Positions 2,421 through 29,584 of a stretch of 64,000 nucleotides of DNA are shown piece by piece. The stretch is from assembly GCA_032718475.1 (NCBI GenBank), contig JAUCBJ010004465.1, positions 12,864-76,863 on the forward strand. The letters are read 5' to 3'. The notes beneath the pieces are model-generated. The model ran no database searches. It saw only the letters and a list, made by a program, of their open reading frames with translations, and was not told where the DNA came from. This DNA is from Nemertoderma westbladi. Taxonomy: Eukaryota > Animalia > Xenacoelomorpha. Within the stretch, counting starts at the first letter, position 1; each line of letters starts with the position of its first letter. Both the position numbers and the translations under genes were made by a program.

Positions 2421-4131
2421 TGTGAGCGGATTCAATTCCGCCTCATTACCCCCATAAAGTTTGGAAGTGGCGCCTTTTTCAGCAATATTGGAGATACGAG
2501 ATTGATAACAACCAATCTCGTATCACACCCAATAACGGGGATAACTCATACCCCAAAAGCCACACAAAGGGAGGTTAGAGGTCAAACCACCTCGAGAGGG
2601 CAAGTAACCAACAGCGGGGGAGAACTACTACTACTACTACTAGGATCGGCATGCTGCATTGCAGCTGCATTTTTAAGAATGCTGTGCCGGCTTGTCAACA
2701 AAATTGCACCGCCACAACTCCCTATCACCCATGACATTTGCTAGATCATCCGCATCTTTAAGGCCAGTGTCCTTTAAGATGCGTCTCAAGAAAGTCATGG
2801 GCTGTCTACCATGCTTATTCACTCCATGAGGCTGCCAAAGTACAAGATTATGCACTGGCTGGTCCTCACGGCGAAAGCAATGTCCTGCAAAGCGGAGGCG
2901 ATTTTGTTCTAGTGTCAAGCTTGGGGGAACCAATGAGACACCTCCAATGTTATAGTGTCTGGTTGGAGATGTGTGCATTGTACTTGACACAATGTACCCG
3001 GCGTAGCATTCTTGTGAATGTGCCATCCAGAGATTTGGTGTCCTCAGCAGTTAGAGCCCAGCATGGACTCCCGTAGAGGAGTACTGGAACTACTGCTGCT
3101 CTAAATAATCGGACCTTAAGTTTCCGATTAATTCTAGGTGACTTCCAAATCCTGGAAAGCCTATTCAAGGCTGCCCATGCCTTTCCCTTACGTATTCGAA
3201 GGTCCTCACCTGACTTCCGGATCCATGATCCCAGGTAACAGAAGTCGTCCACATGCTCAAGCATACCATCCTTTGAGCTTATGCTCATCCGATCAGAGAC
3301 TTGCTGAGGACTTTCAAAGTTAACTGTCAGAATTTTGGTCTTTCTGGAGTTAATAAAAAGACCAACACTAGAAGCAGCATGTTCTAATGAGCTGAGGAGC
3401 CGCTGGGCTCCCTCTAATGATTCTGAGAGTACTCCTAAGTCATCAGCAAAGTCTAGATCAGTTAGGTACGTGGCAGGATTTCCTCGACTTCTGGAGCCAG
3501 TAGGTGGAGTTAACATCACCCCATCATCATTATGATGATCTAAGGACATGCGTAGAACATAGTCAACCACAATAATGAACAAGAATGGTGCAAGTGTGTC
3601 TCCTTGGAGGACGCCCCATAACACTTCAAATGGTTCTGTGTCACCATCAACAGTAGACACAAATGTTGTCGAACCATCGTATACTGATCTGATTGCTGCA
3701 ATAATTTCATCAGGAATCCCATATAATGAAAGTATGAAAGAAGCACTCCCACAGAGGTGAGATGCGTGAAGTAGGTTATGAGCCAGCGGGGGAGAGTATC
3801 CACTGGACAAAGGCCACAGTAGTGTACTAATTATACATATATTATCCTGCTACCGGTCAGTTAATCAGTTTACTCAGTCATTCAGTTCAGTGCAGACTGG
3901 TGATATCTTTTACCGTCACTGTCACCACATATCATCAATATTATCACTACTGGTACACTGGTATTATCGATATCATATTAACTGTGCTACTATTTACTAT
4001 TATTAATTTACTATACTATATTATCAATTATCGATCGAATATCAAGACGGTAACAACAAACTTTATATCATTTCAAATACCACAGTGACGCGTAATCTGA
4101 CAACCGGTCGGGATCCCTTGATCCCGTCACA
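2421..4131 (+). repeat. 5' LTR of element A, interrupted by an RTE insertion
   Basis: TGTGAGCGG...CCCGTCACA, near-identical to 34069-34667 once 2625-3738 is removed. Confidence 0.93.
2625..3738 (-). mobile_element. 5'-truncated RTE-like LINE (RT C-terminal half, frameshifted), (TAG)n tail
   Basis: RT motifs GVLQGDTLAPFLF, LDFADD and FCYLGS. (CTA)n tail on the + strand at 2625-2643. Absent from the 3' LTR. Possible short TSD AGAA. Confidence 0.9.
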
Positions 4132-4158
4132 GTAAAAGATATCCCAACACTATAAACT

Positions 4159-5712
4159 GTGACTGCCAGGAAAGATGAGCACAGGGCAACAAGGATTGTC
4201 GGAGGGAGAGAGGACACCGCCGCGGACCCCGGACGATACCAACCAAACGACCCGCGAGGCCGCGACGCAACGGTACCGACCTGCGACGCTGGATTCGCCG
4301 ACGAGAGACGATCTGGCAGTCTAAGTGGAGGGCGGCCGTCTACCACGAGAAAGGGACGAGTCGAGGCACGACGGCGGTCGAAGTACCGAAGTCGCCGGCC
4401 AGCCACAGGCCGAGGGTGATGGACGGCCCACCGGAACGGCGGCGGTGGGGCCGCCGGTACGATGCCGAACCAGGAGAGGAGGAGGAGATACGAAGAACGC
4501 CACAAAGAAACAGCTCAAGGAGGCCAGAGAGGGGGCGAAGGTAAACCAAGGGAAGTTGAGCCAGTGGCTAGGTGAGTCGAACAAACATTTCAGATATCTA
4601 GTCCGTTTTGGGCAGGGAGAACTGGCGAGTGAGAGAGCGAGGGGGGTCGTCACCGAACTATTCGAACTGTGGTGATCCGGGGTTATGGAGCGTGAAGTAG
4701 TGTACGTAGGGCTGTATTTAGTGGATGCTAGGGGAATTAAGTTAGTGGGTTGGGCAGATCCGCATGAGGGCGAACCCGAGGTTAACCCCGAGGATTCGGT
4801 CTCGTCGGTTAGTGAGAACCCCAGAAAGTGGGGGAAAGTTAGTAGGACAGGGAGGCAATGAGAGTCCGTCGCTACCGATAAGTCCGCTACATCCTCCACG
4901 AAAGCAAGAAGGGTGTTAGAAATAGATCTGGCGTGTCAATTAGACATGGTGGCGCTAGACCAGAAAGAATTAGAGAGGCAGTTGGATGAGGGAACTGCGC
5001 TGTTGGAGAAAGAGAGGGAGTTGGCGAGGTAGTGTAGAGAGAGGGACGAGAGGGTAGCGAGAAATTGTAGAGAACAAGAAGACAGAGAGGCAGAGGAACG
5101 TAAGGAGCAAGAAACGAGAGTAGAGGAGGAACGTAAGGAGCGAGAAACGAGAGTAGAGAAGGAACATAAGGAGCGAGAAACGAGGATAGAGGAGGAACGT
5201 AAAGAGTGAGAAACGAGAATAGAGGGGGAACATAAAGAGCGAGAAATGAGAGTGGAGAACGAGTGCAAAGAACGAGAAGTGAGAGAGGCAGCGAGGGTGG
5301 AGAGAGAAACAAATGAATATAGAGAGCGGGAGGCGAGAGTAGAGAGCGAACGTAGAGAGTGGGTGGTGAGAGAAACAGAGTTAGCGAACCAGAGTTTGCG
5401 AGAGAGAGAGCGGGAAAGCGCATGCGGGATGATACGCATGCCCGGTTGAGGGGGCTTATGCAATAACAGGCCAAACAGAAGCGCCGACTAGAACTGGCGC
5501 AGTTGGGACTATCAGAGAGTGAGGCTGGCTCGGGTAGTATTTACGAGGAGCCACAGGTTATGGAAATGTTTGTTAATACCCCACTTACAGGGACCGGGCG
5601 ACAAACCCAAGACTGGTGTAACCGTACGGGCAGGGGGGGGGGGGGGGGGTAATAACAATAAGTTAGAAGACGTTAATATTAATAGTACCGTAGTAGACAA
5701 CCCTAATCAAAC
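4159..5712 (+). pseudogene. Decayed N-terminal, coiled-coil-like part of element A gag; continues at 22604
   Basis: Broken R/E-rich ORF pieces homologous to element C 59826-61100. The sequence joins 22604 onward when element B is removed. Confidence 0.6.
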
Positions 5713-6887
5713 TGTTCGCGCTTTCAGACCTTTAGCAGTTTAACCTGCCAAATTTGGATGTCTTCTAGATTATAAATCGACTTTAGCCTATGACGAGTAT
5801 TTGATACACTACATTAGCCGAAGCCAGTCTATGCGCGACCATTCACCCGCTGGATATACCCGGGAGACTGGATTCGGAAGCTTTGACCTTATTGCGGTGT
5901 AGGCCTACTGTATTATTCGACTGATTGTTAATATCTAATTTCTGACCAATATTATTCACTTTCGGGAAATATTAACAGTTCCTTTAGGACGTGGCGCTCT
6001 AAATATGTAAACAGAGTTATGACTTACACTAGACACAACGGGATGGCTATTGGTTCACGTATAAAGCGCATTCTTTAGGAGATGCTTTGTTATCAGTCAC
6101 AATCATGCACACTACCGCACAATACTGCACACCGATCTGCCGACCTTCACTAATTTTAGTCACATATAAAGAGAACAGCAACCGACTCATGTAGTGCCTA
6201 TGAAATAGCATTACATTCACTCCAAAACCACTTTAATGTAAGTCGCAATTGTTATATGTAACCGGTCTCTTACCTTCAGTATATCAAGAAGATTGGGGGT
6301 TTTATAATTATTTATCGGTATTATCCAAATATAATAATATTCCATCAACTGATATAATTAATAACCGATAGTAAATAGCAGTAAAAATGCGGTGTTTGTA
6401 GTTGACAATATGATTTGACACACTGACTTGTGATTAGATAACAGTTATATGTTTCTATGACCAAAGCCTACTAATGTTTGGCTAAAGCCTGAAACACAGA
6501 AACTCCAAAGCCGGTCTTCTGGCTGTGGACAAAATACACATACTGACTGCATTGCATGAGTTTCTGTATACAATCTCCAACACAGAGTCAAAAAACGCTC
6601 TGATTGGTCGACCGAACAAAGAACGAACAAAGAACAAAGAAAAAGTTACACGTGTACATATCAGCTGTTAGATGTCGTCATGGTAACTACACTGTATCAA
6701 GAGGATTTTGGCTTATTGCGACATAAGATCTCTAGTTATGTCCGCTAAAGTACACATACAGAAGAAATGGCTTTTTATGTCCACTAAAACACCGGTACAG
6801 TAAGGAAACGGCTTTTTATGTCCGTTAAAACACCTACAGAGTACTTTGCGGGGAAAATAACTAGCTAGATCCGCAAAAGCCTTTACA
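5713..6887 (-). repeat. 3' LTR of element B (about 1175 bp)
   Basis: Direct repeat of 21426-22598; purine tract TGGGAGCGG adjoins it on the minus strand. Confidence 0.93.
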
Positions 6888-6965
6888 CCGCTCCCAGAAA
6901 ATGGGATTTAATTCTATAAAATATAAAAAATCACAGTTTCTAAAATATAAAAATACTCTAAACAG

Positions 6966-8517
6966 TTAGTTTTTCTTGCGCGGACGGCGTTTACGCAGTT
7001 TTTTGAGGCTAGCAAGTGTCCTTTTCTCTTTGGGGCGAGCCACTTTACTAGGAGGGCTGTAACTCCTGGGTGAAGGGTGCAATACAATTGCATCAGAAGG
7101 TTTAGGGTTACGGTCGGTGTATCCGCCGGTCGAGGTACCTGGTTGATCTATATCAACCTCAGTGGAACGAGGTCGAACAACCTTGAGAGCGCATTTTAAG
7201 ACAGTAGCTCTTATTGGTCCTTGACGATTCGTCTGCACAAGAGCGGTAGGTGGACCGTGTGTAGTGAGAAATTTCCTCGGTTTGATGATTCTTTTCAACT
7301 CGCGTTCTCGCACTCTATCGGAATCGATATGCTTCTCCTCGAGCTGATTTTCCTCCGCTTGTTGTCGGAAGCATTCGTCTAAACTCTTGCAGAAAGTAGA
7401 GCCATCCAGGTTCGATATCTTCTTAGAGATTCTGGATTTCCTGATCGAACTGAGATAAAGCTAATTCGTTTACCGCTTGGACTTGTTGCTACAATTTACG
7501 TTTCTCTAAACAATTGTAGGTTCCTTTTCCGATCTTTTGAATAATAGTGTCCAACGCGTTTCGTACAACTCTCTCCTCCGCCTCGGTGACAGGTTGTATC
7601 GGGTTAATCCGGGACGATGATACGGTTGAATGGCGATATTAGATGTCCGCGTCCCAATCCGGCTAGGTAAGATGGGCGAATATTTAGGGAGACCACAACC
7701 GGAGTGCCACCGACTAACTGTTCGGGTAACACTAGATCTTGAACAGTGAGTACAGTTCGGGAGGATCCGTGATACTATTAGGATCAAGAGTCTGAGGTCT
7801 AACTAGGGAATGAGGAGGTCTGACCGAGTATTCCGGAACTCTGATCATAGGTTTATTTAAGGATCGTTTGAATCGAGCGAGCATAGGTGATACATCGAAC
7901 AAGTTTCGCTCGAAACTCCCGTAAATATAGCGAGTAAAACCGTGTTTAAAGCAACGTCTCCGCGGATGTTTATGTCTTTCCGTTTGTTGGTTGGGTCTTG
8001 GGCATTCATCGCAATAATACCAAAGACGCACGTCTTGTAGGGTAAACGCGGGTGACATTTATTCGGTTTTACAACGTTTCTCTCAAGAATTCCAAATATA
8101 CGTTGGAGTTACTGCGTTTATCCGGTTCTTTAACGTCTTCTCTTTCGAGTCGATTTCGAATAGAATTTTCGCATTCGATTTTCAGTTCATCGTTCCGACT
8201 CCGCTGGGTAGGATACTCAAAGCAGTACCATTTCCCTTTCGGTGTCGACATCGTCCGTATTGTGTAAATCGATAGGATGACCAGTAGTTAAGAAGTCCAT
8301 AAGCGTACCATTACGATGCGTATAGCGAGCAGTGAATTTTTTCGATAGTCCAATTCACGCGTAAGTTGCTACTGGGACATCGGCAGTTCGATATAACGAC
8401 CATCGTCCTCCGTAGTAGTTGGACTAGCGTCGCTGCGTATCAAGCTATCAACAAACGATTGCAACGGTAGAGTATATTTCTCCCTGATACCAAGATCATC
8501 TTCTATCAACTGCGTCA
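6966..8517 (-). pseudogene. Decayed extra ORF(s) between integrase and 3' LTR of element B, unknown function
   Basis: Chain of same-strand ORF fragments (8069-8251, 7732-8058, 7506-7787, 6966-7313) with CxxC motifs and a basic C-terminus. Confidence 0.45.
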
Positions 8518-10151
8518 TAGCTGCTATATGAGTTTATCAATATTATAATTAGTTATAATTAGGCTAGCGGGTGTCGCTGCCTACCCCTCTCGGCCCCCAG
8601 ACAGCGCAAGATTCTCAGCGCTGGTGTACTTTCGCCGATGTGCCTATCGCCAACATCGTAGCTGCACAACGACCACAACAACCAGCGCGAGTCACTCCAC
8701 CGTCCGTCCCAAAGGCTTAGATTTACTTCAGGTTCTTACTGGAGAGTTAGGGCTACTTTCACAATTGCGACTCGCTACTGTAAACACACTTTAGTAGTAA
8801 CATTCACCTATAAATGCACAAATTCCACACAACTGTCACAAACCGCACACATTCGGGCCATTTGTACGTTAGTCAAGTGCCTTCCAGAATGTCACGTTAT
8901 TATTGGGTATCTTTAGATACTAGCAGTGTGCTATTTTATTCCTTATGCTATTCAATGGGGCAAGCCTTTATTGTTCTTTTAACTCACTTCTAATTCTAGC
9001 GTGGTTGTTGCCATGGTGACATTATGGAAAGCTAGCAGTAGAATTAGAGTAATTCTCATGCATACAGATCTGGGATGCTATTTAATAGTAATTCTTTAAT
9101 TGTCAATATTCCTCTTTATACATGATTTTATGAATTTTATCGGCTATTGACTATATATTGGAGATTCTCGCACACTAATACACTTAATAGAGTGAATCTC
9201 CGCTCCCATGATCTATTAATTAATGGAATTTTGGGAATGTTATAAATTGTATAAAAATGACAATTTATCAAATTCATTAAAACATGAATTTAAATTTATT
9301 CCCGTAAATTTTATTATTTAATATTAAATAGACACAATTTTATTCCAGAACATGTCTGGGGACTAGGATCCTTGATTCTAGGAAATTGGTCTTTTTAAGA
9401 ATATCGGTAAGTGCTACGATATCTTAATAGACTAGAATTTTAAAGGATCTAAAATTTGACAGATTTTGTAAATATTAATAATTAATATTTAGGATGGGCA
9501 CCAGTTTATTCCAGAACTTGTCTGGGGATGTTAACCACTGATTCTAGAATTTTGTCTTTCAAGTATATCGGTGGGTGCCGCGATATCTTAATCGACTAGA
9601 ATTACAGATGGTCAAGGGTTTAACAGATTTATTTGCGTTGTACGCTACTGTTAAAGGGACATCACGCTACTATATGTATTATTTAATATACGGTATGAGA
9701 GCAATATCGCACGAAGCAATGTCAGTGAGAAGAGGCAAGTCGTTTCCAAGGTCTACCCAGAGCTTGGTTTAGCCGAGACACGAGGATCTGAATTTTGCAT
9801 TCCTAATACTCTACTTTACCAATAATACTTGAATATAGTAGGAGCTTTATTGTACTTTAATAAGTACGGATATTTCATCTTACTGTAGTTACGTATTTGT
9901 AATGTAATACGGACAGTAAGGAAAGATAAAAAGAATTATTTCTCGCCGTCGCTGTAAATATATAATATATAAGTAATTAAGTAATAAACACTAATATATA
10001 TTGCACTAATCTACTAAATAATCGCTAAAATAACATTCTACTAAATAAAATTAAAGAAAACGATTATAATAAAATTACATAATAATACGTAGCTAAATAT
10101 AAAATAATAAGAATATAAAATAATATAGTCACACACCCACTCCAGCCGTTG

Positions 10152-13100
10152 TTAAGTTGGGGAGTCCCTAGATGTTTGCTGGATTAGGGAGGTGGTCGTG
10201 GGAAGAGTATCTTGCCTTCCATAGTTTCCGGAGAGTTCTCTGTCTCTTTCCAATAAACATAAACGACCAACTGGGCGATTGAGCTGCTGTGTCTCGAAGA
10301 CAATTCCCGGTTTCTTGAAGTTACGTCGCATGACGACGAGTTCTACCGATCGCACCAAACCATCATCCGAGATGTGAGTCTCGATGATACGACCTGTCTG
10401 CCACCGCTTACGTGGAAGATCTGAATCCACAATAAGGACCATGTCTCCAGCGCTGACGTTTTCTTGCTGCGCAAACCACTTAGTTCGAAGTTGTAGCGTG
10501 GGCAGATAATGTTTTTCGAAATGGTCAGCGAAACGACGGGATAACAACTGCATAAGTTGCCAAGTTTGTCGGCAGTATTCGTCTCCGTCTGTGATTTCCG
10601 ATCGTGGGAGCATGGCTACAGGTTTCTTCAGTAGGAAGTGCGCGGGTGTTAGCGCTTCCAGGGAATCGGGACTCGAGGAGACTGGCATAAGCGGTCTCTC
10701 GTTGAGATAGGCATCGATTTCTTCCATTAACGTCTGCAAAAGTTCGTCGGTGAGATACGCGCGACAAGGCACTATAAAGTGAAATGTGGTTTTCACGCTC
10801 CTGATTAATCTCTCCCAACTTCCTCCCCACCAAAGGGCGTCGGCGGCGTTGAAGGTCCAGCTAGACGCTGTTACCCTTAGCTGATCGTCCACCTGTCTTT
10901 GGTTCCAATCTTTAACGTAAGTTTTGATTTCATTGTTAGCACCAATGAAGTTTGTTCCCTTATCAGATCTCATCGTGTTACTAGTTCCAAAGCGAGTGAT
11001 CTGTCGTCGTAAGCTCAATAGGAAGCTGTTGGTAGATAAATCGTTCACCATATCGAGATGGATAGCTCTACAAGTCATACAAACAAAGATGACACACCAT
11101 CTCTTGACTATAGTCCTAGCACGATATACTTCAATAGGGCCAAATAAATCTACACCTGTATTAGTAAAGGGTGGTTCATAGAAGCTTACTCGTTCCCTAG
11201 GTAATTCTGCCTCTCGCTGTGTTAAAGGCCTACTGAATGCTTTCCTACAGGGTATGCAGTTCCTAAGAACTTGGTTCAGAGCTCTACGGGGTTTATAAAA
11301 ATAATAGCGAGTTCAAATTTCGCTAAGAACTCGTTCTCTACCAGCATGATAAAGTTTGCTGTGAACATCTACAATCATCTTGATTTGTATTTCAAGATTT
11401 CTAATGAGTATGGGAAATTTAGTGTCAAAGGATAATGGAGCATTAGTTAATCTTCCTCCAACACGGATCAACCCATCTATCATTGTGCTAGAGAAACGAT
11501 CCCTTAAGCGCATCTGTGGATTTCTCAACAACAGGAAATACTTATCGGAATCCTCATAGCATTGCATGAGTCTCAGCATCTGCTTGTTGGTTTCTTCATG
11601 CTCCTGATAACTGATCTTCTCCTTCAGAAACCTGTCGGATATCTTATATTTGGGAAGATCTTTAACAACATGGACCTGCACAGATGTTAGTGGAGCGGTA
11701 TCACTATTGGTCTTCGCCCTGGAGTAGTGATGATGAAAACATCGCTTTAAATATGTAACGGCCTTACAGAGCCGATTCCAGGAACTGTAGTGATATATCG
11801 CTCTCTGCAGGAGAGGTGAGAGTCCTTGCGAGACATCTGGTATTCCAGATTTCCAATCCTTCTCTCTGATTTCTACAACAGACTTATTTGTGGCTGTGGG
11901 TTTCGGATCCAAAGCGTCGTCTCCGATAGTGTGTAGTACAGACAGATCTACCACGGGTTTAAATAACTTCGATTTACTCGCCCGAGTTTTAGGTTTGACT
12001 TTCTCCGCTCCCTTGGCCTGTCTAATCTCTGCCGTAATAAGATGAGGAGGCCATTCATCCTCTTCTTTGCTTAGGAAGTCGGGTCCACCTAACCAGTCTG
12101 GAGTATCTATCAGTTCTTGTGGAGTTGCTCCCCTGGAGGCGATGTCTGCTGGATTAATCGCTCCGGGGCAATGTCTCCATTGATCCATCTTCGTGCGACT
12201 AAGTATAATGGCTACTCTGTTGGTAACGAAGACGCTGAACTGACAGACTTCATTGATTATATACTCCAACACGAGTAAAGCATCGGTCCAATAGACAGTT
12301 TTCTCCAGTGGATAGTCGATCTGTTCTGTTACATTCCGGCCGATGGCTGTAGCGTATAAAGCCGCTTTTAACTCCGCTCGAGGAACTTTCAACTTGTTGT
12401 TTATCAATGCCTTAGAGGTAACCAAGGTGACTTTGATTCCATCCGGAGTTTCCACTCTTAGGTAGGCTACTATACCTATTCCCATATCGCTGGCGTCTCC
12501 AAACATATGGAGTTGATAGGAATACGTAGGGAGAACATGACCAAAATATGAACGGGAAATTATAAAGTTCTCAATGGCTGGTAGAGAATCTTCCCATTTC
12601 ATTCACTTCTTTAATAATTCTCCCTTAAGTGGATCGTCCCATGAGTGGTTTTCAAGCCACATTTGTTGTACTAAACTCCGAGCAATCAATATAACTGGGC
12701 TAATAATTCCCAATGGATCGAAATAAGTGCTCAGGATACTTAAACAAATCCGTTTAGTCCGAACTGGATTATCTCGCTGTTTTAGCTGGAAAAACAGGAT
12801 ATCTCTCTCTGTGTCCCATTTCAAACCAAGTGTCTTGGTTTCTGGAAGATCATCTTTGATTAGGACTAGGTCTTTCGCTCCTCGATCTTCTACCGGGATC
12901 GATTCCAGAAACTCACGGGAGTTGCTGGTGAATTTAGTTAATCGAAATCCACCTCTTTTTAAGCACTCTACCGTTCCTTTGGCGACATCAATGGCTTCTT
13001 CCACAGATGGAATGGACTTTAAATTGTCGTCCATGTATATATCCCGTTTGATGTTGTCGATCACCTCTTTTGAGAAGGCTTCCCGGTTGTCATCAGCAGT

Positions 13101-14644
13101 GGTGCGCACCACTGAGCAGGCGTTTGAAGGGCTTGAGATGATCCCAAAAGCCTGGATGGTCATCCAATACTCCACCGGTTTCTGGTTGAGGTCTCCTTCA
13201 GGCCACCACAGAAATCGTAGGCTATCTCGATCCCTATCCAGCGCCTTGACTTGTAAGAACATGCCTTCTATATCGGAGGCGAAAGCGATTGAATATTGTC
13301 GTAATCTTAAGAGTATTCCCAACAAGGATTGGAGTAAGTTGGGTCCTGGTAACAACTCGGAATTAAGGGATTGGCCCATGTAGAGGGCGGAGCCATCAAA
13401 TACTACTCGTACCTCATGGGGTTTCCCGGGTTTGGGAACGTAATGATGTGTTAAATAGTACGTTCTCTCAGTTAGGGGTTTTCCTTCCGGTACTCGCTCC
13501 GCATATCCCTTGTTAATAAATTTCTTCAACTGAGTCTGATACATTTCTTTAGCTGAAGCATTTGCCGTAAGGCGTCGATGTAGTTGAGCAATTCTTTTCT
13601 CCGCCAAGGGTCGGTTGTTTATGAATTTTGGTTCTCGCTTTCGGAATGGGAGACCGATTTCATATCTACCTTGATCTTTAAGAAAACGTGTAGTTGTCTC
13701 CTGGATCTGCTTGGCTCTTTCTTCTTCTACCGATAGGGCCTTATCGTAGGAATTGGGCTCTACAGCCTCTTGAGTAAAGAATCGTACGGCGTGTTCATCT
13801 CGAGTTTTCGCGTTATATCTCTCGATTACGTCATTCAGTTCGTCGTTATAGTCGACTTGTCCTGATGGACGAATGACTTGACATAGGTTCACTTGGTTTT
13901 GCCAAGTCTCGTTTTCCGTAAGGATATCGATGGTATTCTCCTCGTCGAAGAGCTGGTGTATATCGTCATTATCTGAGGAGTATGGTGTTCCCTCAGTTGG
14001 GTCGTCAACTTCACTGCTCTCCACTTCCCATTCACTTAATTGATATACCTGTTCTTTTGGTAATCTTTCCATGAGAGTTCTACGTGAAGGGCCAGTAAAG
14101 TACCAACCTACTCTAGTTCTTCCCGCATAGACTTGTAATGGTTGCGGTTGAGCAGGCCGTTTCTCTAATGTCTCAAGCGCTTCATGCGCATTTTGGCCGA
14201 TGAGTATTTGCACTCCGGGGTAATCTGTGTTGAATCTAGGTATATTAAGCTGCTGGGTGGAATCGTCCTCATCCCAGTTATAAGGTTCTACTTGGCTGGT
14301 AGCGAAGTTCTTTATCTCTACCATTTTTACTGACCTTATACTATGTTCTCCTAGTTCATCCTGGGGGGTGGACAACGCACCTACATAATAATCCGCTATT
14401 ACTGTAGATTTCCAAACCTGCATAATTCCTGACATGTTTAACTTAGTTCGGAACTTGGGTTGTCCAGCAAAGATGTCTTCGGCTAGTTCTTTGTCGATGG
14501 ATGTTCCTGTGCTACCGGAGTCAAGGAGGGCGTTCACTATATAACTCCTTTTAGGTCCGTGGACCCTCAACTGTACTACGGGAAATTCTCGGATTCCTAC
14601 ATTGGAAGTTGGTGCTTTCCAAGATGGTTGTCGGTCAGAAGTAG
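10152..14644 (-). pseudogene. Element B pol: protease, RT, Pao RNase H and integrase, with stops
   Basis: LLDSGS protease, YMDD RT, HMFGDASD/YWTD/NPADIASRG RNase H, and SDKGTNF/WERLIRSVK/LTPAHFL integrase motifs. Confidence 0.93.
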
Positions 14645-17600
14645 TTAGGAGAGCTCGCTGTCTGTGTCTTTTTCATACGTAAGTGCTCGATACACTGCGG
14701 TATTTATCAGGTAACAGGATTCGTTTTCATCGGAGAATTCGTCCGTATAGAATCCTTCCATCTCAGAACTTTGGTCTGTGTTGTTCACATCACTGAATTG
14801 GACATGTAGTTCGGAATCACTTACCTGACTCGGGCTGTTTCGTTCGAATTCAGTGTGCAACAAGAGATGATGTTTTGCGCCGCACTTCGCACACCTTGCG
14901 TCTGAGTAACAGGTTCGCCGTTGGTGTCCTTGTCTGAGGCAATTATAACACAACCGCTTATCCCACATGACTTCCCGTCTATCCTTTAATGATTTCTTTA
15001 GGAATTCATCACACACATTCAAACGGTGGGTCCCGTCACATAGCGCACATTTCGGTTTGATATTACTTACCTTATTTTGATTAACGTTGTGCACACTCGT
15101 TCTTTCTTCGGGCTTTCTTACCTGAATTCTCTTAGGAGACGTAAGAGGAGTTTTTCTTACCTGTTCTCTCCTGTCATTGGTTCGAGACTTTAATTTACTT
15201 ACGTCTTTAGGCGTTTTATTGACATAATAAGATCTTTCAGTGTCTTTCCCGCTGTCTTCTTCTTGAGAAGCCTGGCTTTCGCCGTCGTCGGTATAACACA
15301 CTGGTGTTACCTTTCTCCTAGAAACGGGTTTCTCACTTACCTTGTTTTCCGGTGTCTTCTCTCTGGACTGCTTTAGGAGCTGTAATTTCACTTCTCCATC
15401 TAAGAATGACATGAGATCAGCCATGGTAGGGTCTCGTCGTTGTTGTTCCATCATATATAACACTTTCTTATACAGCTCCAATAACCATAGAACTCTGATA
15501 TTCATGAGACTTACCTAGCCAATCTAATTGTCTACAGATCTCTTGAATCTCATCGGAAAACTCTATAATCCCGCTGCTAATGAACTTTCTGGGGGCTACC
15601 AATTTTGCATACAAATACCTAGCTATGTTATTCCTATTACCATACCTGATGTTTAGTGTATCCCAAACTTGTCTTAATCCATCTGGATGTCCAATAAACT
15701 TTAACGCCATTAACTTGGGAGATCCTTCCAAGCACTCAATGAGGAATCTAAGTTTCTCTCCGTTAGATAGCACAGAGTTCTGTATGTTATCTTTGTAATA
15801 TTCATTAAAAGGTAACCATTTCATCTCATCTCCATTGAACTTGACGATCTCTCCCACCTTTACCGCTTGACGGGCTTCGGTTCTAGCCATTTGACGCGTA
15901 AAACTTTCTTGGGCCATCGTGTTATTTAATATCGAGTTATCGGTATATAAATTTCTTGGATTATTATCAAGTCTATATGGAATATCATTGTCAACAGGTT
16001 TATAATTACCCTTAATAGGGTTTACTATAGGAGTTTCCACTTCACTAGCAGTATAGATGCATGTAGGCTCCACACCTTGCGCATGAAATACTTCAGACCT
16101 AACAGGTTGACACATTGTTACAGGGGGTGGAGGTATACCCTTTTGTGTATTTACTAATTTATCGCGTTCTAATGCGATACTCTGCTGCACTTCTTGCAAC
16201 TCTAACCTACTTTCCCTTACTGTTCCTTTAAACTGATGAACAGTCTCCTGCATCTGCCCGAGCAGGAGATTCATCCCCCGCCGCCCCTCATCCACCCACT
16301 CGACCGCCGAAGCGGGAGCCACCAACGTAGTAGCGGGTAGACGAGGGACAACGGGCGACAAATCATTGATCTTTTGCTCGGAGTCCAGGACAGGAACTGT
16401 CTCAGGGGTTGTTTTGTGGGGCACAGGTAGTTTAGTGCTGTGTAAAGGGAATTTAGAGGTAGGTTCTGGGAGTACAGGTGTCTCTATCACCGAAAGGGTG
16501 GCTTCGAGAACAGGCCTAATTATTTCAGGCTCATCTACTATAGTAGGGAGTCTTTCTATTTTAATTATTTGGTCTGTGGGTTCTATACTACCTAAGTCTG
16601 TGTTAGTTAGTTGCCTTCTAACAGCTGGGGGCAAATCAGGCAATTTCTGACGGTGGGACATTCTTCTACGCCTACTTAGACGAGATCTATTTCCTCCGCC
16701 TTCAGGATCGGTGGTATCGCCTTCATCAGATGATGTAAATCCCTGCCTTTTGGGAGTAGATCGACTCATCATCTGCATTTGACTAGCTGTTAACTGTTTA
16801 TTTATGCAGTCTTGATTCTCTTGAATATTTTCCAACTCTAGTTGGGTGGTCTCTTCAGATGCTCTTCGTTCTGCTTCTGCCACTGCTATCTTTCTTTCCG
16901 CTTCTGCCGCTGCTGCTTTTGCCTCTGCCGCTGCCTCTGCCGCCTTTCTTTCCGCTTCTGCCACTGCCATTGCCGCTGCTGCTGTCTTTCTGTCTTCTAT
17001 ACGTTTTTTCTTGACTTGTTCTTCTTGGACCCTAGCGATGCGGAGCCTTTCATCAAATTTAGCTTGGTTCGCAGCTATCATATCCGCATTGATTGCATCT
17101 AACACAAGCTTGGCTCCTTCACTATTAGGGCTAAGTCCAGACAGCCGTCTCCTCAACTCTTCGTCACCTACAAATCGTTGATAGTCTGACAGATAGATGT
17201 CAATAGCATCCCTCTTATGCGGTTTCTCAGCTGTCGCCTCACTTTCCACTTGGGAAAAGGTAGCGTCTGTTGATTCTCCATGGGTTGAGCGCTCAGCCAG
17301 CCGAACTTTCCACTGGGCCGTTCCTTGAACCTGGAGACTCACCCGCTGGAACCAAGTCTTTACAGCAACTTGCAACGACGTGTCTTGTCTTCTTTTCGAA
17401 GCTTCCTCAAAGGCCGATAGGATTAGTCTGATTCTTAGAATTCTTTCTCGAACTTGATAAAGCAGCTCTCCCTGCTCTTGGGGTCCTTGGGGTTGTCGAA
17501 ACAGTTGTTCTTCTAATCGCTCCAAAGAGCTAAAGAATCCCTGTACGTATCCTGCTGCTGACCTCTTCCATACAGCTGGATCACTGGTGTCTTTTGTTAC

Positions 17601-18161
17601 TCCCATCCTGTGTATGTCTTCCCAGGCAGCTTCCGATAAGTCAAACGGGAGTCCGGGTCTGGCGAAGTTCCATTGCGACTCGACAATAGACTTCAGTTCT
17701 TCCCTTGTATATCCCGCATAACTATCCTTGGTCGATCGCTTACTTCTCGCCCAATCAATCTGGTGTTCCTCCACCGCAATCAATACCCTAGTGAGTACGG
17801 CTGCAGGAAGGATGAGAAGGGGATCCGAATAAACCGCATCTGCCATCTTTGCTCCGCGCTCGGGTGTCAGCTCTACAGTATCCGCACTACTGGAGCTGTC
17901 GGGCCGCTGAGAAATAAGTTCTCGGCTCGAGTGTTGCTGCTGTTCTGCTGCTTCTTGGTCCCGCTTGACCTGAGCTCGAGTGCCTATGATAGACCTATGG
18001 TGTTGGACCAGCCTAGGGTCTGATACTACTACTGGAGGGATGATTTTTCTTACAGTAGGAGGTGAATTGAACTTCGGTCTCACACGTTCCACACTCCTGT
18101 CTGGGTCACAGATGGTTGTATCTAGGAGACTGTCTGACAGGTTTTGCTTTGTGTCAGACAT
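14645..18161 (-). pseudogene. Element B gag (897-aa ORF plus frameshifted zinc-knuckle part)
   Basis: Pao gag core (KFNGDEMKWLPF...EKLRFLIECLEG) and three Cys/His knuckles: CALCDGTHRLNVC, CYNCLRQGHQRRTC, CAKCGAKHHLLLH. Confidence 0.9.
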
Positions 18162-18294
18162 GTTTGTTTGTACAGTTGAATGCCTACTGCTATATTACAG
18201 TTAAAGCAAGTCTAGTAATTCAGTATCAACTGTTAGCCTAGTAATTAATTACCGATACTGTTACTCAGTGTAACGTGATATATATATATAATAT

Positions 18295-18675
18295 ATTAGA
18301 ATACCGGTATACACTTATAGTATATATATAAGTATTATTACAGACTAGGTTTGTCACAGAATACCGGTATGTAATTTCAGCGCAAATATATAGCAATATA
18401 TAATAAGCCTATCGTGAATACCAGTATACAGCTTACACTTATATTATATATAAGTATAATTATTACAGACTAGGTTTGTCACAGAATACTGGTATATAAT
18501 TTCAGCACAAATATATAAATATAGAATAGGCCTATCGTGAATACCGGTATACAGCTTACACTTATAGTATATATTAGTATAATTATGGACTAGAATTAAT
18601 TACAGAATACCGGTATAATTTCAGCCTAAATTTGTAGAAATAAATATAATAAGCCTATTGTAAATACCGGTATGT
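18295..18675. repeat. Degenerate tandem repeats (GAATACCGGTAT core, about 60/120-bp period) in the element B leader
   Basis: Recurring AATACCGGTAT and GACTAGGTTTGTCACAG motifs. Confidence 0.75.
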
Positions 18676-19627
18676 CAATTATTTTAGAATAATTGAATTT
18701 CTGACTTTTAGGGGTTACTTGGTTACTTTACTTTACTTGATTACCGTTATTTAAGCAGTAGTCCAACTGATATTTAGACCTAATTGATGTATGACAGGCC
18801 TACTATTTTATAAATCGGTTTGAGTTGATTTATAATATATATATACCCGTATAATGGGTTTTGTCAATATTTGAAATAAATGTTATTATTTCTGGGAAGG
18901 AGTCACTGCACAGAAGCTGTACGCTCTCAGTGAAGTGCTACTTGTTGGACACTAAAACAAATAATTCTAATTTACCTAAGTTACTTAATACTACAAATTA
19001 CGTACAATTCGGGATGAGATTACAATCTCTAAATAAACACAAAAATTACACGTACGAATTTTTAGGGTAATTTTACAAGAATTCTACAAACCAGCCTAAC
19101 AAAGGGTTAGAATATCTGGTTATTACAAACAGACAGGATACTACGGTATTTGAAAATAACAAAGCAGTAGTAAATATACTGCGTTGTCCAGATAGGAAAA
19201 ATACCACCGTCTGACGACTTATAGCCGTAACGCTATAAGTACTACGTTATGTATCACGGAGTGTTCCTACCTAGAAGTTAATTACCGCGGTCTACCAGAA
19301 CCAATGTGCCTATTAACCACTTTACAACACAAATATACTGCCTACACGCTAATTACCTTCGGAAAGCACTGTACACTAAACCCTAAATTAGGTACAAGTA
19401 CTTATACAATAAATAATCAGCAGTTAGAAATACTTGTACAGCTAAAAGAACCACAGTATCTGCTGGAGTGACTGGGGCACAAAATCACCAGTCTTTACCT
19501 ACACCAAGCAGCCCTGATGTAGTAGCGGGGTTAATTTAACTATAACGGTATGTACAACAAGCACAATTACTGTAGGAATAAACTTGGGGATATGAATGTT
19601 GCGAATAATCGCATAAACTCTGAATAA

Positions 19628-20202
19628 TAAATATTACGCTACGCGTACAGACTACTCAAACAAAATACAGACCAAACACTGGCAGACTACTATCAAGCCT
19701 AAACAAACTACAGTATATGCAGACTCCGAAATGGTTAGTTAGTATGCGTTCTAACCGAGTAGTACGACTTATTCTTTCAGGGGGATTTACCTCACAGCAC
19801 TGGAAGCCCCTACGTTCCTAACTAGTACTTTATTGGACATACACTCTACACACACCGCACTCTCTTCAGACCTAACAACAGCCAGACAACAATCCAGCCT
19901 ACAAATTATCTAAATAAGAAATATTACGCTACCCGTACAGACTACACAAACAAAAATACAGACCAAACACTGGCAGACTACTATCAAGCCTAAACAAACT
20001 ACAGTATATGCAGACTCCGAAATGGTTAGTTAGTATGCATTCTAACCGAGTAGTACGACTTATTCTTTCGAGGGGATTTACCTCACAGCACTGGAAGCCC
20101 CTACGTTCCTAACTAGTACTTTATCGGACATACACTCTACACACACCGCAATCTCTTCAGACTTAACAACAGTCAGACAACAGTCCAGCCTACAAATTAT
20201 CT
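19628..20202. repeat. Tandem duplication of about 290 bp in the element B leader
   Basis: 19631 and 19921 both begin ATATTACGCTAC and align through to CCTACAAATTATCT. Confidence 0.9.
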
Positions 20203-20552
20203 GTACAATCTGAGCAGGCTTACACGCCTTCTGCTCAATATTGGCCTACAAATAAATAAAACTGACAGAAATAAGTAAAATCCCAATAAAAAACCAGGGC
20301 GGGCCCACCCTGATTAAATATTAAGGCCTACCGGTATATAATTATCAAATCGAATAATACTACTGTACCTGTACTGCTGTAAGTACCGGTCCGGGTGGTT
20401 AGGAAGTCAGGCCTACTAGGTACCGGTTGACCGGTACTTCAGCTTTATTGCCTACGTTGCAATACAGAAGCAATAACTGTTATTGTTCTTACCAGAACAA
20501 TATTAAACTGTATTTATTGCCTACACTGCAATCAGAAGATTATAACTGTTAT

Positions 20553-20775
20553 TGTTCGCGCTTTCAGACCTTTAGCAGTTTAACCTGCCAAATTTGGATG
20601 TCTTCTAGATTATAAATCGACTTTAGCCTATGACGAGTATTTGATACACTACATTAGCCGAAGCCAGTCTATGCGCGACCATTCACCCACTGGATATACC
20701 CGGGAGACTGGATTCGGAAGCTTTGACCTTATTGCGGTGTAGGCCTACTGTATTATTCGACTGATTGTTAATATC
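20553..20775 (-). repeat. Extra 223-bp copy of the element B LTR U5 end
   Basis: Matches 5713-5935 with one visible mismatch. Confidence 0.92.
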
Positions 20776-21425: not shown

Positions 21426-22598
21426 TGTTTGCGCTTTTAAGACCTTTGACAGTTTAACCTGCCAAATTAGGATGTCTTTTAGATGATAGATAGTCTTTAG
21501 CCTATGACGAGTATTTGATACACTACATTAGCCGAAGCCAGTCTATGCGCAATCATTCACCCGCTGGATATACCCGGGAGACTGAATTCGGAAGCTTAAT
21601 GATTGATGGTGTAAGCCTACTGTATTATTCGACTGATCGCAATATATAATCTCTGACAAATATTATTCACTTTCGGGAAATATTAACAGTTCCTTTAGGA
21701 TGTGGCGCTCTAAATATGTAAACAGAGTTATGACTTACACTAGACACAATGGGATGGCTATTGGTTCACGTATAAAGCGCATTCTTTAGGAGATGCTTTG
21801 TTATCAGTCACAATCATGCACACTACCGCACAATGCTGCACACCGATCTGCCGACCTTCACTAATTTTAGTCACATATAAAGAGAACAGCAATCGACTCA
21901 TGTAGTGCCTATGAAATAGCATTAGATTCACTCCAAAACCACTTTAATGTAAGTCGCAATTGTTATATGTAACCGGTCTCTTACCTTCAGTATATCAAGA
22001 AGATTGGGGGTTTTATAATTATTTATCGGTATTATCCAAATATAATAATATTCCATCAACTGATATAATTAATAACCGATAGTAAATAGCAGTAAAAATG
22101 CAGTGTTTGTAGTTGACAATATGATTTGACACACTGACTTGTGATTAGATAACAGTTATACGTTTCTATGACCAAAGCCTACTAATGTTTGGCTAAAGCC
22201 TGAAACACAGAAACTCCAAAGCCGGTCTTCTGGCTGTGGACAAAATACACATACTGACTGCATTGCATGAGTTTCTGTATACAATCTCCAACACAGAGTC
22301 AAAAAACGCTCTGATTTGTCGACCGAACAAAGAACGAACAAAGAACAAAGAAAAAGTTACACGTGTACATATCAGCTGTTAGATGTCGTCATGGTAACTA
22401 CACTGTATCAAGAGGATTTTGGCTTATTGCGACATAAGATCGCTAGTTATGTCCGCTAAAGTACACATACAGAAGAAATGGCTTTTTATGTCCACTAAAA
22501 CACCGGTACAGTAAGGAAACGGCTTTTTATGTCCGTTAAAACACCTACAGAGTACTTTGCGGGGAAAATAACTAGCTAGATCCGCAAAAGCCTTTACA
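21426..22598 (-). repeat. 5' LTR of element B; the first 230 bp or so are diverged
   Basis: Aligns with 5713-6887. Confidence 0.9.
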
Positions 22599-22603
22599 CA
22601 AAC

Positions 22604-25600
22604 TTTCATTCCAGGAAATAATATTTTGTCCGATAATAGTAATTTAAATCCGAGTATCCCTAATTTAAACGCACATAATAATCCAAATAATTCAAATAAT
22701 AACCTAAACCCAAATATAGAAAATATTTAAAATATGCAAAGTAATTCGAATAATTTAAATTTAAATACGCAAAATAATTAAAATAATAATTTTAATTCAA
22801 ACGAGCAAAATATTCCCGATTCCAATCAAAATATACAAAATAATTTAAATAACAATCCGAATTCAGAACATAATTCAAATAAATTAAATAATTTAGAAAA
22901 CAATCTTGATAATGGTGCTATTAATATAAACGCGGCAGATATAGGTGGTCCGGCCAGCGAGAGCCTGCAAGGCCACATAATTAGTACGCAGGGGGTAGCG
23001 GGGGTAAGAGACCCCGACGGGAACCTGGAAGGCCACGTAGTTAATACGCAGGGAGTAGCGGGGGTGAGTCAACCCGACGGGAGCCTGCCAGGCCACGCAG
23101 TGATAGAGGGAGAGGCGGAGGTGAATAGACCCAGCCGCAGTAGAGATAGTGCGTCGACCAGAGAGGGGCGTAGAGGCGAAGCGAGAAATAGTGAAGTGAT
23201 AGGTGGCGAGTGGGGGGGGGGGGCTACAGGAGCCCCACAACGAGAGATTAGCGGCGAGAGGGGGGGGGGGGGGGGGGGGCAGAGAGTGTCCCACAGGCAT
23301 CGGCGGATAATCCCTTGGCGAATTAGGTGGACTGCAGCACCCGGCGACGGAGAATAGTAGGGGGATTACGAATATCCCCAGCGGCGTGCAACCGGGTAGA
23401 GAGAGGGGGGTTGGCTTCGCGAGCGGGCGAGCGACGAGACGTCGAGCCCAGTCAGAAGAGGGAAGAAGAACAGTGGAGTTTAACCGGGAGGTCGAACGAG
23501 AGATCTCATGAGCGGGGATGCTACACTGAAGAGAGAAGAAGAGAAGAGAAAAGAAGAAGCGTCGCTACGAGCGACCGGAGAGCGAGGACAGATAGCGAGC
23601 CGTCGGTAGTAGAGATGGAGTTGGAGAGTCAGTGGGCTCGAACTACGGGAGATTGCCATCGCCCCGGAGAGATGCAGCCTGGCGAGGCATATTATACACC
23701 GAGAGAGGGGTACAGGACGTACCGGCACGAGGACAAGAACAGGAGAGGGGATCGAAGAGAAACTTCCCGATGGGATATAGCTGCCGATCGAGGGTACGGC
23801 AGTCGCGGGGAGGACTTCTTGGATTATTCAAGAAGATTAAACTTCGGACCGGAGGGACACATACAGACTGCAGGACATACTGTAGGCCTTACTGCACATA
23901 CTATAGGCCATGTTGGGAGAGATAGTGTAGGCGATAGGGTAGCGCGGACAACGGGATTAAACCCGGAAGTCGCGGAGTATATACCGGTAGGTAGGCCAGA
24001 AGTGGATAGGCCTATACCGGTACCAGCACAGCAGTATGACTATAACATGCAGGGACATAACATATATCCAGGGGAAGGGAGAGTTATTGCGGATAGGTGT
24101 ATGGGCCCCAATATATTAATATCAACCCCAGTACCAAACATACCACCGGTGGGGGGGGGGGGGGGAGACAGGGTGACATTCCCCCATTACAATATCAACA
24201 ATACACTCAAACAGAAATAAGAACATCGAACCCCCTGGACGAGAACAGGTCTTGTGACACGGAAATATGGAGGGGGCCATTACCCCCAATGGTATATCCG
24301 ACGAAACGGAAGGCAACAGGCCGGACGGCAGGACCGCACCCAACGGGAGAATCTGTACAGCATCCTTCGAACCCATTGGAAGCACAGGCGATCGGAATGG
24401 CTACACTAATCGATGCACTCAAGACCAGAATCGAGCTATCACCCATAGAGCCATTTAAATTCGACGGAAGTAGGCCAGAAGAATACCTGCAATTTCGGCG
24501 CATGTACAGCAAAGAGATATTAACTAAGAACCTGACGCAGGCGGAGTGCCTAAAATATCTACAGGTATATACAGGAGGCCTAGCGTACGACATCGTGAGG
24601 CAGTATCAGGGCATCGAGGGTGGCTTCACGACTGCATGGCGGGCCCTAGACAGGGAATACGGGCATCCGGCCAAGATCATCCGGCAAACCCTGAGGGGTA
24701 TAACATCGGGTGGCCTACAGGATAACCCCGTTAGCATAAAGACGTTTGCGAACAAAGTCGAGAAGGCGTTAATCGTGCTGAAAACATTAGACGCGCCATA
24801 CGAACTTAACCCATCTAATAATATCACCACGATAGCGCAGGCACTGCCGATCTGGCTGTCCAATAAATGGAGAAAGATCGCCTTCTCCACCCAGGAGAAG
24901 AAGGGTGCTGAACCGGGCCTAGAGGAAATGTCGAACTTCCTCAACTACAAAGCCGAATTGATCACGGACCCAGTCTTTAGCGAGGATAGTCTGGGGAAAG
25001 GGCCAAAGACCGAATATAACAGGCCGAAACCAGAACACAACACGGCAAACACATTGCCAAAGCTTAGACAATCGCTGCCATACGCGGCGACGCAGGGGAC
25101 TGCTAGTCCACATGTAGCCGGGGGTAGGGTCACACCATGGAGCGGACAGGGGAAAAATAACAACACAAACAAACATAACCCCAACACGCCCAGTAGGCCG
25201 AACCCAAACAATAAGAACAGTAGGGATCTAGGTACGAACGTAAGTGCGATACGCAGCACACTGTATAGGGACGGCTATAATCCAAACAACAAATGCAAAT
25301 TGCATACGAACGCACTTCATCAGACCAGGAACTGCAGATATTGGCAAGCGTTGCCCAAACAAGATCAGGTAGAATATGCAAGGAAGAGTGGAATCTGTCA
25401 TCGATGTGTGGCGGGCGGACACAGAGCTGATCAATGTAAAGAAACACCAATTAAGTTTGGTCAAGGGAAAGGGCAGACAATGGCGACAAGCACCGTAGGG
25501 GCGAAGAGAAGAGGAACGGTACCACTCGGGGTGGTACCAGTGAGGATGGTCGGAGAAGGCGGTCGATCAGTAACTACTCTGATGCTGGTCGACAGTGGAG

Positions 25601-28600
25601 CAGCCTTCACATTGGTGGAGAATTGGGTGGCTGAAGAGATAGGACTAAAGACAAGGCCAAGTAGGATGGCGGTAACAACCATCTCCAGCAAAGATGAGGT
25701 CCTGGAGATGAGAACGGGACGGTGCGAGATAGCAGCGATAGCAGCGATAGCACCGGGATGCGATTATGGGGCGACCATCGACCCCATCCAGGTAATAGAA
25801 TTGATCAACATCAACACCAGGCGACCAACCAACATCGAGGTCGAACAATACAGATTCCTGGACAGCATCGATTTCTCGATACCAGAGGTGGACGTTAGGA
25901 AGGTATCCATTATAGTGGGAATGGACTGCCTGACAGCCCACGAGAGAATGCAGACGGTCTTCGGCGAAGACAGACAGCATGACCTGATGGCAATTTTAAC
26001 ACCATTCGGGTGGACGCTAAGCGGCCCAATTAGAACCAAGATTCCGTTTAGGATGTCGGAGACATCAGGGTGCATGTTCGCAGGAACTATGAGGGAGATG
26101 GAGGATGAAGGAGTGGAGGAGCAACTCAAGAGACTGCTCAGACAAGACTTTGAGGGACTAAAGGAGACCGGGGTCGGAACCTCGGTAGAGGATAAACAAG
26201 CGATACAAAGCGTAAAGGAGTCGATGAGATGCGACGAGAGCGGTACACCATAGGCATGGTGTGGAAACAACCAAAATTACCGCTACCTGAGAACAAGGGA
26301 ATGGTACTCATGAGGCTTCGTAAACTGAAGCAAACGCTGAAACGGAGCACCGAGAAGGATGAGTACATCCATAAGACGATAAAGAAGTATGTCGAGAAAG
26401 GATGGGCCGTGGAGTTGCCAGTCGACGAACCGAACACGGACAGGACCTATTACTTGCCACTTCACGTGGCTCTAGATCCAAAAAAAGGTAAATTGCGGAT
26501 GGTAGTTGACGCATTGGCTAAAACCAACGGCAAGTGCCTAAACGACTATCTGCTAGAGGGCCCCAATATCTATAACACGGGAATCGAGGTCCTACTGAGA
26601 TCCGTGTTACGGAGGAGGATAGTGACAGCCAGCGCTTCCTATGGTACAACGGCGACGAGGAACCATCGATAATACCAATGTACAAGATGGTGGTGCAGAA
26701 CATGGGGGCCAAGTCGTCCTCGTTTACGACGACTGTGGCTGTAAGAGATACAGTAGAGGGGAAAGTGGGGAAGTATAGCGCCAAAGCGGTCAATATGATT
26801 CAATGCGGCTTCTATGTAGACGACGGAATGGAGCCTGGAAACACGGTTAAAGAACTACTGGATACAGGGTGCGAGGTTCGCGACATCCTGAAGGGATGTC
26901 CTGAAGGGAGGGACATCCTGAGGAGTTTATGAAAGCCATAGAGGACAGACGACCGGAGTCGACCATGGATAACCCTACAACAGCCAAGGGACAGGACATG
27001 GCGAACAAGAGAGTAGAGTCTCAGCAGAAGGCACTGGGGATTGTGTGGAACCGGGAGACAGATGAGCTCAAATATCAACTGAGCCAGGAGGGCGCGGACA
27101 TCCACACAAAGAGGGGCTATGTATCGTACATAGCAAGGATATATGATCCCCTAGGCTTAGCATCCCCACTGTTAGTCACGGGGAAACAGATTCTTAAGAA
27201 AGTATATAAGCTAAAGGACGAATGGGATACAGAGGTCCTGGAAGAAATCAGCAAGCAGTGGAGTAAGTGGACGGAGAGTTTAGAACAGATGGGGACGTAC
27301 AGCATGCCACGCGTGTATTTCCCGGATGGGGACATGACGGATCTGGATCTATACATGTTCTCCGATGCATCATTGGAAGCATACGGGGCGGCACTCTACC
27401 TAGTACATCGAGAGGGGGCTCATACGCCCAGACTTGCATTTAGCAAAGCAAAGTCGACGCTGCCAGATTCAGCATCAGTCCCGAAACTCGAGTTGACAGC
27501 TGCAAGATTAGGAGTAAGGGCCACAGCCTACTTGATGGACACTATTCCCAACATAGTGGAAACACACTACTGGACGGACTCCATGGTAGTGCTTGGTTGG
27601 CTGCACAATGAGAAGACGAGATACCCTATATTCGTCACAAATAGGGTGGACGAAATAAGGGCGACGACAGAGTTGGAAAGGTGGCACTACTGCCCAACGG
27701 ACGAGAACCCAGCAGACTTGTTATCGAGGGGCGTGGCACGCCACACTTTCTTAAAGAAGGAAGTATTGTGGCAGCACGGGCCACAGTTCCTGAACGATAG
27801 GGCGGCCTGGCCACCGATGAAGAAGGTGGACCCGGGCTCAGAGGAAGTAGCACCAGAGGAAGAGGGAGAAGACTCAGAAGGTGAAGAGATATATAGTCAG
27901 ATGGCGGGGGAGATCAGGGGGGGCAACCAAAATTAGAAGAACCATGCGACAACCCGACGGATAAGCTCCTCAGCTACAGCTCAAGCTGGTACAAGACCAA
28001 GAAGTTGGTAGCGTACTGGAGGGCCTTCGGGGATTTCCTCAAGGGAGTTGGCAAGGATGCCAAGAGGAAACCAAACATCGATCTGGAGGGAGTGGCCAAG
28101 GCCGTGATACGGTATGAACAGAGAAAGAACTACGGCGACGAAATGGAACGCATCGGCAAACAACAACATCTTCGCCGGAACAGCGAGCTCATCATGCTGT
28201 CACCACAACTCAATGATGATGGGATTCTAGTAATGAACTCCAGAGTGCTGAATAACAACAGCCTCATCATCCCACCGAAACCCATTATCATCCCAAACAG
28301 ATCGCCGATAGTCCACCAGATCATTTGGAACTCCCACAAGTCGATATTGCACGGGGGCACCAACCAGACCCTCACGGAGATACGGAGGACCTTCTGGGTC
28401 ACGCAGCTAAGAAAGAAGGTGAAGGCGGTAGTGGGGCAGTGCCAGACCTGCCGACGGGCGAGAAAGGAGCGGGCCGTACAGGAGATGGCGCCATTACAGG
28501 CCAGTAGGGTGAGACAGCACGACCCGCCATTCACGCACTGCGGCGTAGATATGTTCGGGCCGATAAAGATCAAGGTGATGCGACACACGGTGAAACGCTA

Positions 28601-29421: not shown

Positions 29422-29584
29422 TGTTTAGTCGTCCAAGTGTTGGACTGAGGGGGGTGGGATTGAGGGCGAGACGCCCTTCCCCACACAAAATATAAAAAAA
29501 AATAATAAAATAATAGAAAGAGAGTAAGAGTAAGAGAAAGGAAAGTAATAGTACATAGTACGTAGTAGTAAGTAAGTAGGCAGA

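Follow-up and report, generated by a model that had tools for sequence, protein, structure and literature searches.

Candidate self-priming in a BEL/Pao retrotransposon lineage with a primer-binding position complementary to its own LTR

The position directly downstream of the 5' LTR of a BEL/Pao retrotransposon (element A), where a primer binds, is complementary to a segment within that LTR, and this pairing is real and conserved between A and a sister element (element B) in the same window, the whole stretch of 64,000 nucleotides that was analysed. The absence of a tRNA site, together with a primer site that is complementary to the LTR and co-varies with it, suggests that the lineage likely self-primes. 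It is considered reasonably probable, on the sequence evidence, that it does so in a Tf1-like manner, with a piece of its own RNA serving as primer for minus-strand DNA synthesis. By analogy with Tf1, this primer probably originates by cleavage from the transcript's 5' end.

Element A consists of the following main parts.

2421-34667 (+), element A, BEL/Pao, broken and with nested insertions; TG...CA ends, target-site duplication ACTTC
2421-4131 (2421-2620 + 3740-4131) (+), 5' LTR of A, interrupted by a LINE fragment at 2621-3739
24097-29421 (+), gag-pol of A in several broken frames, with DUF1759, aspartic protease, a YVDD reverse transcriptase (RT) motif at about 26815, Peptidase_A17 (RNase H) and integrase
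34069-34667 (+), intact 3' LTR of A, 599 bp, with a G-rich polypurine tract just upstream

Self-comparison of the window and alignment delimited the 599-bp LTR, with 3740-4131 corresponding to 34279-34667 and 2421-2620 to 34069-34267; apart from indels, the two LTRs agree at all but 10 of 576 aligned columns. Alignment with the 3' LTR places the last base of the 5' LTR at A4131. This agrees with the LTR end given in the preliminary description, but the start lies at 2421, as the LTR is split by the LINE fragment, which carries an RVT_1 match. The 5-bp duplication ACTTC is situated within a 32-bp satellite, which surrounds A at 1391-2420 and 34668-36090. Pfam matches follow the order DUF1759 (6e-9), Asp_protease_2 (1e-5), Peptidase_A17 (2e-39) and Integrase_H2C2 (2e-11). 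The RT has no Pfam match because its reading frame is broken, and its YVDD motif was read directly from the sequence. All homologues of the RNase H region among the matches listed (120 of 867) contain PF05380, and the metazoan relatives among the matches listed share approximately 35-41% identity with A. Element A thus belongs to BEL/Pao on the basis of its Pol, and the earlier assignment to this superfamily is confirmed by the domains and the PF05380 homologues. The domains of A are of the BEL/Pao type, a domain search gave no chromodomain match, and A is not a member of the Tf1/sushi group. Further BEL/Pao features of A are an LTR within the 0.2-1.2 kb range, the G-rich polypurine tract and the target-site duplication. 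The 18-nt host-tRNA primer-binding site (PBS) is lacking, this being a descriptive trait in a family that the ICTV rests on phylogeny.

Stop codons, frameshifts and nested insertions have broken element A. A non-coding repeat, present in near-identical copies (5713-6888, 20553-20775 and 21426-22599), interrupts its gag and flanks a nested BEL block. Polypurine-like, G-rich tracts, each followed by TG, lie downstream of pol (29440-29455), downstream of an extra ORF (33303-33317) and ahead of the 3' LTR (34058-34068), and several strong short hairpins are located upstream of the 3' LTR at 33530-34060 (for example at about 33876-33912). A 48-bp satellite of approximately 240 units (38700-50300) gives rise to long spurious ORFs.

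Two segments of A make up the complementary pair.

3902-3913 (+), candidate self-primer segment of A, of which the 3' C3913 pairs with G4132
4132-4143 (+), primer-binding position of A, self-complementary and without TGG; reverse complement of 3902-3913

The sequence at 4132-4143, GTAAAAGATATC, is the exact reverse complement of 3902-3913 in the LTR, comprising 12 bp at offset 0, and the only further copy of the 3902-3913 12-mer is that in the 3' LTR (34447-34458). The polarity fits a primer, with C3913 opposite G4132, the first base past the LTR. All coordinates of this complementarity and its termination at the LTR edge, as previously described, check, and the reported absence of TGG after the 5' LTR holds over 60 nt. 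A complement of this length is expected 4.0e-5 times in the LTR by chance, and 12 nt were reached at 1 of 38,200 control start positions. Element A also passes a published screening rule for self-primers, given in an excerpt of PMC6317226, whereby an LTR complement of at least 10 bp begins 0-5 nt past the LTR.

The corresponding features of element B are as follows.

59214-59761 (+), 5' LTR of sister element B, 548 bp
59556-59564 (+), candidate self-primer segment of B, orthologous to 3905-3913
59762-59770 (+), primer-binding position of B, complement of 59556-59564 via three compensatory changes

The LTRs of A and B are identical at 352 of 555 aligned columns (~63%). At the orthologous site, nine contiguous pairs are retained in B (expected 1.6e-3 at the anchored position; nine pairs are reached by 88 of 38,200 controls). 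Between A and B, six of the first nine pairs are the same and three are altered on both sides, from T-A to C-G, T-A to A-T and A-T to T-A, with all three still Watson-Crick. Under a permutation null of three random changes this has a probability of 3.9e-4, a value that assumes equal substitution rates and applies to a nine-pair span picked post hoc. The comparison comprises two elements, both of them broken, and within it the covariation test proposed in the preliminary description is borne out by the three two-sided changes. Pairs 10 and 12 do not match in B, leaving 9 contiguous bp, or 10/11, just below the 10-bp rule. The primer sites of A and B differ at 5/12 positions, each matching its own LTR, and the cognate duplexes are predicted at -12.5 and -10.6 kcal/mol, against -3.7 and -2.5 kcal/mol for the crossed ones. 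No TGG occurs within 39 nt of the LTR end in A or B, the first in B being at +40. In B (59214-64000), gag leads straight into the tandem repeats found downstream of pol in A; element B looks internally deleted, with its 3' end beyond the window. A chance match, or a one-off inverted duplication in A through template switching, could be entertained in an AT-rich region with two decayed elements. This explanation is largely refuted by the low expected numbers for A and for the anchored position in B and by the compensatory changes at orthologous positions, and is regarded as very improbable.

The primer helix is accompanied by further potential structures in R, U5 and the leader.

3914-3922 (+), 5' arm of the R/U5 helix, 9 bp, beginning at the predicted cut
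4082-4090 (+), 3' arm of the R/U5 helix
4109-4126 (4109-4115/4120-4126) (+), U5 hairpin of 7 bp with a 4-nt loop; stem identical in B, loop different
4156-4163 (+), leader arm, which can pair with 4126-4133 (one G-U in B) or with the initiator (Inr) region

The R/U5 helix of A (expected 2e-4), which like element B does not feature in the preliminary description, meets the primer helix at 3913/3914, the cut site that self-priming needs. Its counterpart in B consists of 5+5 bp interrupted by a 4-nt bulge and includes one two-sided change, although significance is not reached by the anchored 5 bp on their own (0.058). A difference between the two LTRs of A at 3920/4084 (T-A versus C-G) was not counted as compensation, both changes being CpG-type transitions after insertion. 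The U5 hairpin and the U5/leader stem of the preliminary description are both present, but the latter shares G4126 with the U5 hairpin and 4132-4133 with the primer helix. The three structures can therefore not all fully form together and are partly alternative folds.

The self-primer segment also contributes the loop and the 3' arm to a local hairpin (approximately 3898-3915 in A), as it does in B, where this hairpin is stronger (-16.3 versus -8.3 kcal/mol). Two of the three compensatory changes sit in its 6-nt loop, suggesting that the pairing may be nucleated by the loop. The 5' region of A folds with a z of -3.07, with 0/100 shuffles as good and the primer helix in the minimum free energy (MFE) structure. 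The primer-pair probability in A lies between 0.01 and 1.0 overall, at 0.35-1.0 with the 5' end set at 3859 or 3867 and 0.01-0.14 with 3884. The primer:PBS pair probability in B is at most 0.01 in 12/12 folded windows; in silico the local hairpin wins, and forcing the primer pairs costs 5.1 kcal/mol. Around the PBS, both elements hold the U5 hairpin, the R/U5 helix and the U5/leader stem, but the U5/leader stem overlaps the primer helix and the ensemble of B does not favour the primer helix. An extended duplex between the 5' end and the leader is striking in the MFE structure but was dropped as support, being no better than dinucleotide shuffles (matched by 377 and 186 of 1000 in A, and by 670 and 561 of 1000 in B).

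These folds also bear on the alternative that the pairing constitutes a structural or regulatory switch, acting in packaging, dimerisation or translation, with priming relying on a host RNA, for instance a fragment of a tRNA, or on a different site. The conserved hairpin around the segment, with its greater strength in B, would suit such a switch, and the U5/leader stem can enclose the primer site in a loop, a switch-like anatomy. Furthermore, half-tRNA priming is known in copia lineages, according to passages of PMC6317226, and the 64-kb window contains no tRNA for comparison. However, a host primer would have to fit two sites that differ at 5/12 positions and each track their own LTR, the helix stops exactly at the LTR end in both A and B, and TGG is missing near either LTR end. 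A switch with a primer from elsewhere is thus considered unlikely.

Self-priming from the 5' end requires consideration of where the transcript begins, for which two promoter elements are informative.

3838-3845 (+), TATA-like box of A, conserved in B (59488/59490)
3865-3880 (+), Inr block of 16 nt, identical in A and B, with predicted start A3867

The spacing from TATA to Inr is 29 nt in both elements, and that from Inr to the end of the primer segment is 47 nt in A and 46 nt in B. Judged from these motifs alone, transcription likely starts approximately 35 nt upstream of the segment, near A3867, which would place the complementary segment of A at +36 to +47 of the predicted transcript. TATA-like and Inr motifs had been noted before, with the former at about 3832. 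The motifs are there, but the TATA box shared with B sits at 3838, 29 nt before A3867. A conserved CATAAA in U3 (34101 in A, 59245 in B) precedes the predicted start.

The start site, the cut, its enzyme and the priming can be inferred by analogy with Tf1. The transcript would start near A3867, and 3902-3913 would leave its local hairpin and pair with 4132-4143, an interaction that the 6-nt loop may nucleate. Cleavage would follow at 3913/3914, the junction of the primer and R/U5 helices, with RNase H as the enzyme if the process is as in Tf1. This would release a capped 46-47-nt fragment, the 3'-OH of which would be extended into U5. The self-priming model thus predicts an RNA end at 3913/3914. 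More tentatively, a BEL/Pao lineage may have independently evolved a tRNA-free priming system, of a design other than that of Tf1. Here the capped 46-47-nt 5' fragment would serve as primer, with its 3' end held by the hairpin, the 6-nt loop would meet a looped-out primer site, a two-state RNA switch would gate the process, and the cut would fall at the junction of two stacked helices. Although possible, this fuller scheme is put forward with less conviction than self-priming as such.

The primer could also be derived from the opposite end of the transcript. In this case 34447-34458 in the 3' R would pair with the primer site, either in the same genome or in its partner, and the 3' tail would be cut or trimmed to the duplex edge, possibly by an exonuclease-like product of the extra ORF.

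30691-33300 (+), extra ORF of A, 869 aa, after pol, with a possible 3'-5' exonuclease-like domain and CCHC knuckles (weak)

The segment is present in both LTRs, and the sequence cannot tell which copy serves. By language-model features the extra ORF resembles a 3'-5' exonuclease (PF01612 cluster, score 0.93, 24/30 matches), three CCHC-like knuckles can be discerned in it, and DEDDy ORFs are present in rotifer LTR elements, as an excerpt of PMC5408684 indicates. The exonuclease assignment is nevertheless without Pfam or homologue support, as searches with the extra ORF gave no Pfam match and no sequence homologue. Its best PDB match (7c42, E 0.16) is not significant, a single-sequence model is unusable (pLDDT 32), and by eye the first exonuclease motif looks degenerate. 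Neither AATAAA nor ATTAAA occurs in the LTRs of A (34069-34667) and B (59214-59761), and both the R/U5 helix and the Tf1 precedent favour a 5' primer. Priming from the 3' end is thus considered quite improbable. A primer made by splicing was likewise rejected, since no junction of at least 9 nt was found for the A, B or C/D LTR.

An unrelated BEL family nested in the window on the minus strand (DUF1759, Peptidase_A17, DUF5641) served as control.

8875-8889 (-), control post-LTR site of the unrelated BEL family (LTR 8890-10133), with TGG at +4, tRNA-Thr-like and without self-complement

This second family occurs in tandem at 6900-20500 (-), where one element terminates in the 1244-bp LTR 8890-10133, past which lie the tRNA-Thr-like site and the gag-like region belonging to another element. 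The control TGG site matches tRNA-Thr 3' ends bar one extra base (compared by eye with a table in the supplement of PMC13524379), and its self-complement amounts to at most 5 nt. This suggests that other BEL elements in this host are primed by tRNA in the ordinary way. ARAGORN and Rfam searches detected no tRNA or Rfam match in the 64-kb window. Among candidate relatives elsewhere, loci matching the hairpin pattern (one metagenome and six viral loci) were rejected as family members, having no similarity beyond the motif; they showed no tblastx match and an anchored complement of at most 5 nt, and are thus chance matches. A gag-start pattern search for relatives returned 0 matches, and none of the 8, 13 and 21 matches obtained when viral and prokaryote contigs were scanned with protein patterns was confirmed.

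The region 3740-4400 was compared with contigs from four DNA runs, which represent at most three samples. Two PBS variants were observed, with 4134 A>G, which is the base of B, in 15, 16 and 9 contigs and 4138 G>A in 8, 12 and 6 contigs of X1-X3, respectively, among the matches listed. No partner change at 3911 or 3907, or any other change in 3902-3913, was found among the matches listed (40 of 279). These contigs do not join the LTR segment with the primer site, and covariation is read from the A/B pair only. Contigs in two runs (4137-4202) represent a relative whose leader diverges past the sixth base of the primer site. The depth in the X1 contigs is 19,456 for the U5-hairpin bin and 56 for mid-LTR, values that do not represent a copy number; the high depth is consistent with the hairpin being shared by many diverged relatives.

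If the proposed mechanism is true, BEL/Pao would become the third LTR superfamily with self-priming, after gypsy (shown, in Tf1) and copia (predicted). It would account for those BEL/Pao elements in which no PBS has been annotated, and self-priming might release such elements from control by tRNA fragments. A self-primed BEL/Pao lineage also bears on whether self-priming is ancestral or has repeatedly arisen; it is named as a possible ancestral state in an excerpt of PMC3601003. The ICTV profile describes the Belpaoviridae as primed by host tRNA, with an 18-nt PBS for tRNA-Arg or tRNA-Gly, and their replication as poorly understood (PMC8742986). A term search of two BEL/Pao papers (PMC3118150 and PMC554778) gave no primer or tRNA wording. 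The literature searched, mostly titles and with subscription journals, Repbase/GyDB notes and most supplements lying outside it, contained no report of self-priming in BEL/Pao.

Compared with the Belpaoviridae of the ICTV, A shares the Gag (DUF1759)-PR-RT-RH (Peptidase_A17)-IN order, the LTR length and the polypurine tract, and differs from them, as does B, in the absence of the tRNA-Arg or tRNA-Gly PBS. In C. elegans, BEL elements of the Cer7 type carry an element-encoded, tRNA-like primer ending in CCA, together with a TGG site. There, too, the element supplies the primer, but as a separate tRNA-like sequence, whereas in A and B the partner is the LTR and TGG is lacking. Self-priming has been predicted for the plant lineages Tcn1 (gypsy) and TAR/Houba/Osr-1 (copia) in the available text of PMC6317226, and A conforms to the same prediction rule in another superfamily and another host.

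The closest parallel is provided by Tf1, which primes with its first 11 nt following RNase H cleavage (excerpt of PMC7175516) and of which the PBS region adopts a three-duplex 'pretzel' fold (excerpt of PMC10085805); Tj1 has been proposed to self-prime as Tf1 does (excerpt of PMC4600332). As far as these excerpts extend, A and B resemble Tf1/Tf2 of S. pombe, Tj1, Tosmo/Tcry and the Tf1/sushi elements in that the post-LTR site complements their own LTR. By the same sources, the complement measures 11 nt in Tf1, against 12 in A and 9 in B, a tRNA site is lacking throughout, and additional helices adjoin the primer site in both systems, although the flanking helices differ, with the R/U5 helix here starting at the cut. 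The Tf1 analogy drawn in the preliminary description holds as regards the lack of a tRNA-type site and the complement to the element's own LTR, but not as regards position. The segment of A is predicted within a local hairpin at +36 to +47, giving a primer of approximately 47 nt, rather than at the 5' end (+1 to +11) as in Tf1. Self-priming has been shown experimentally for Tf1, while A and B are known from sequence alone, and the Pol of A is of the BEL/Pao type where that of the Tf1/sushi elements is of the Ty3/gypsy chromovirus type. Elements A and B thus lie outside the Tf1/sushi group but probably work like Tf1, with a predicted primer length and fold that differ from those of Tf1.
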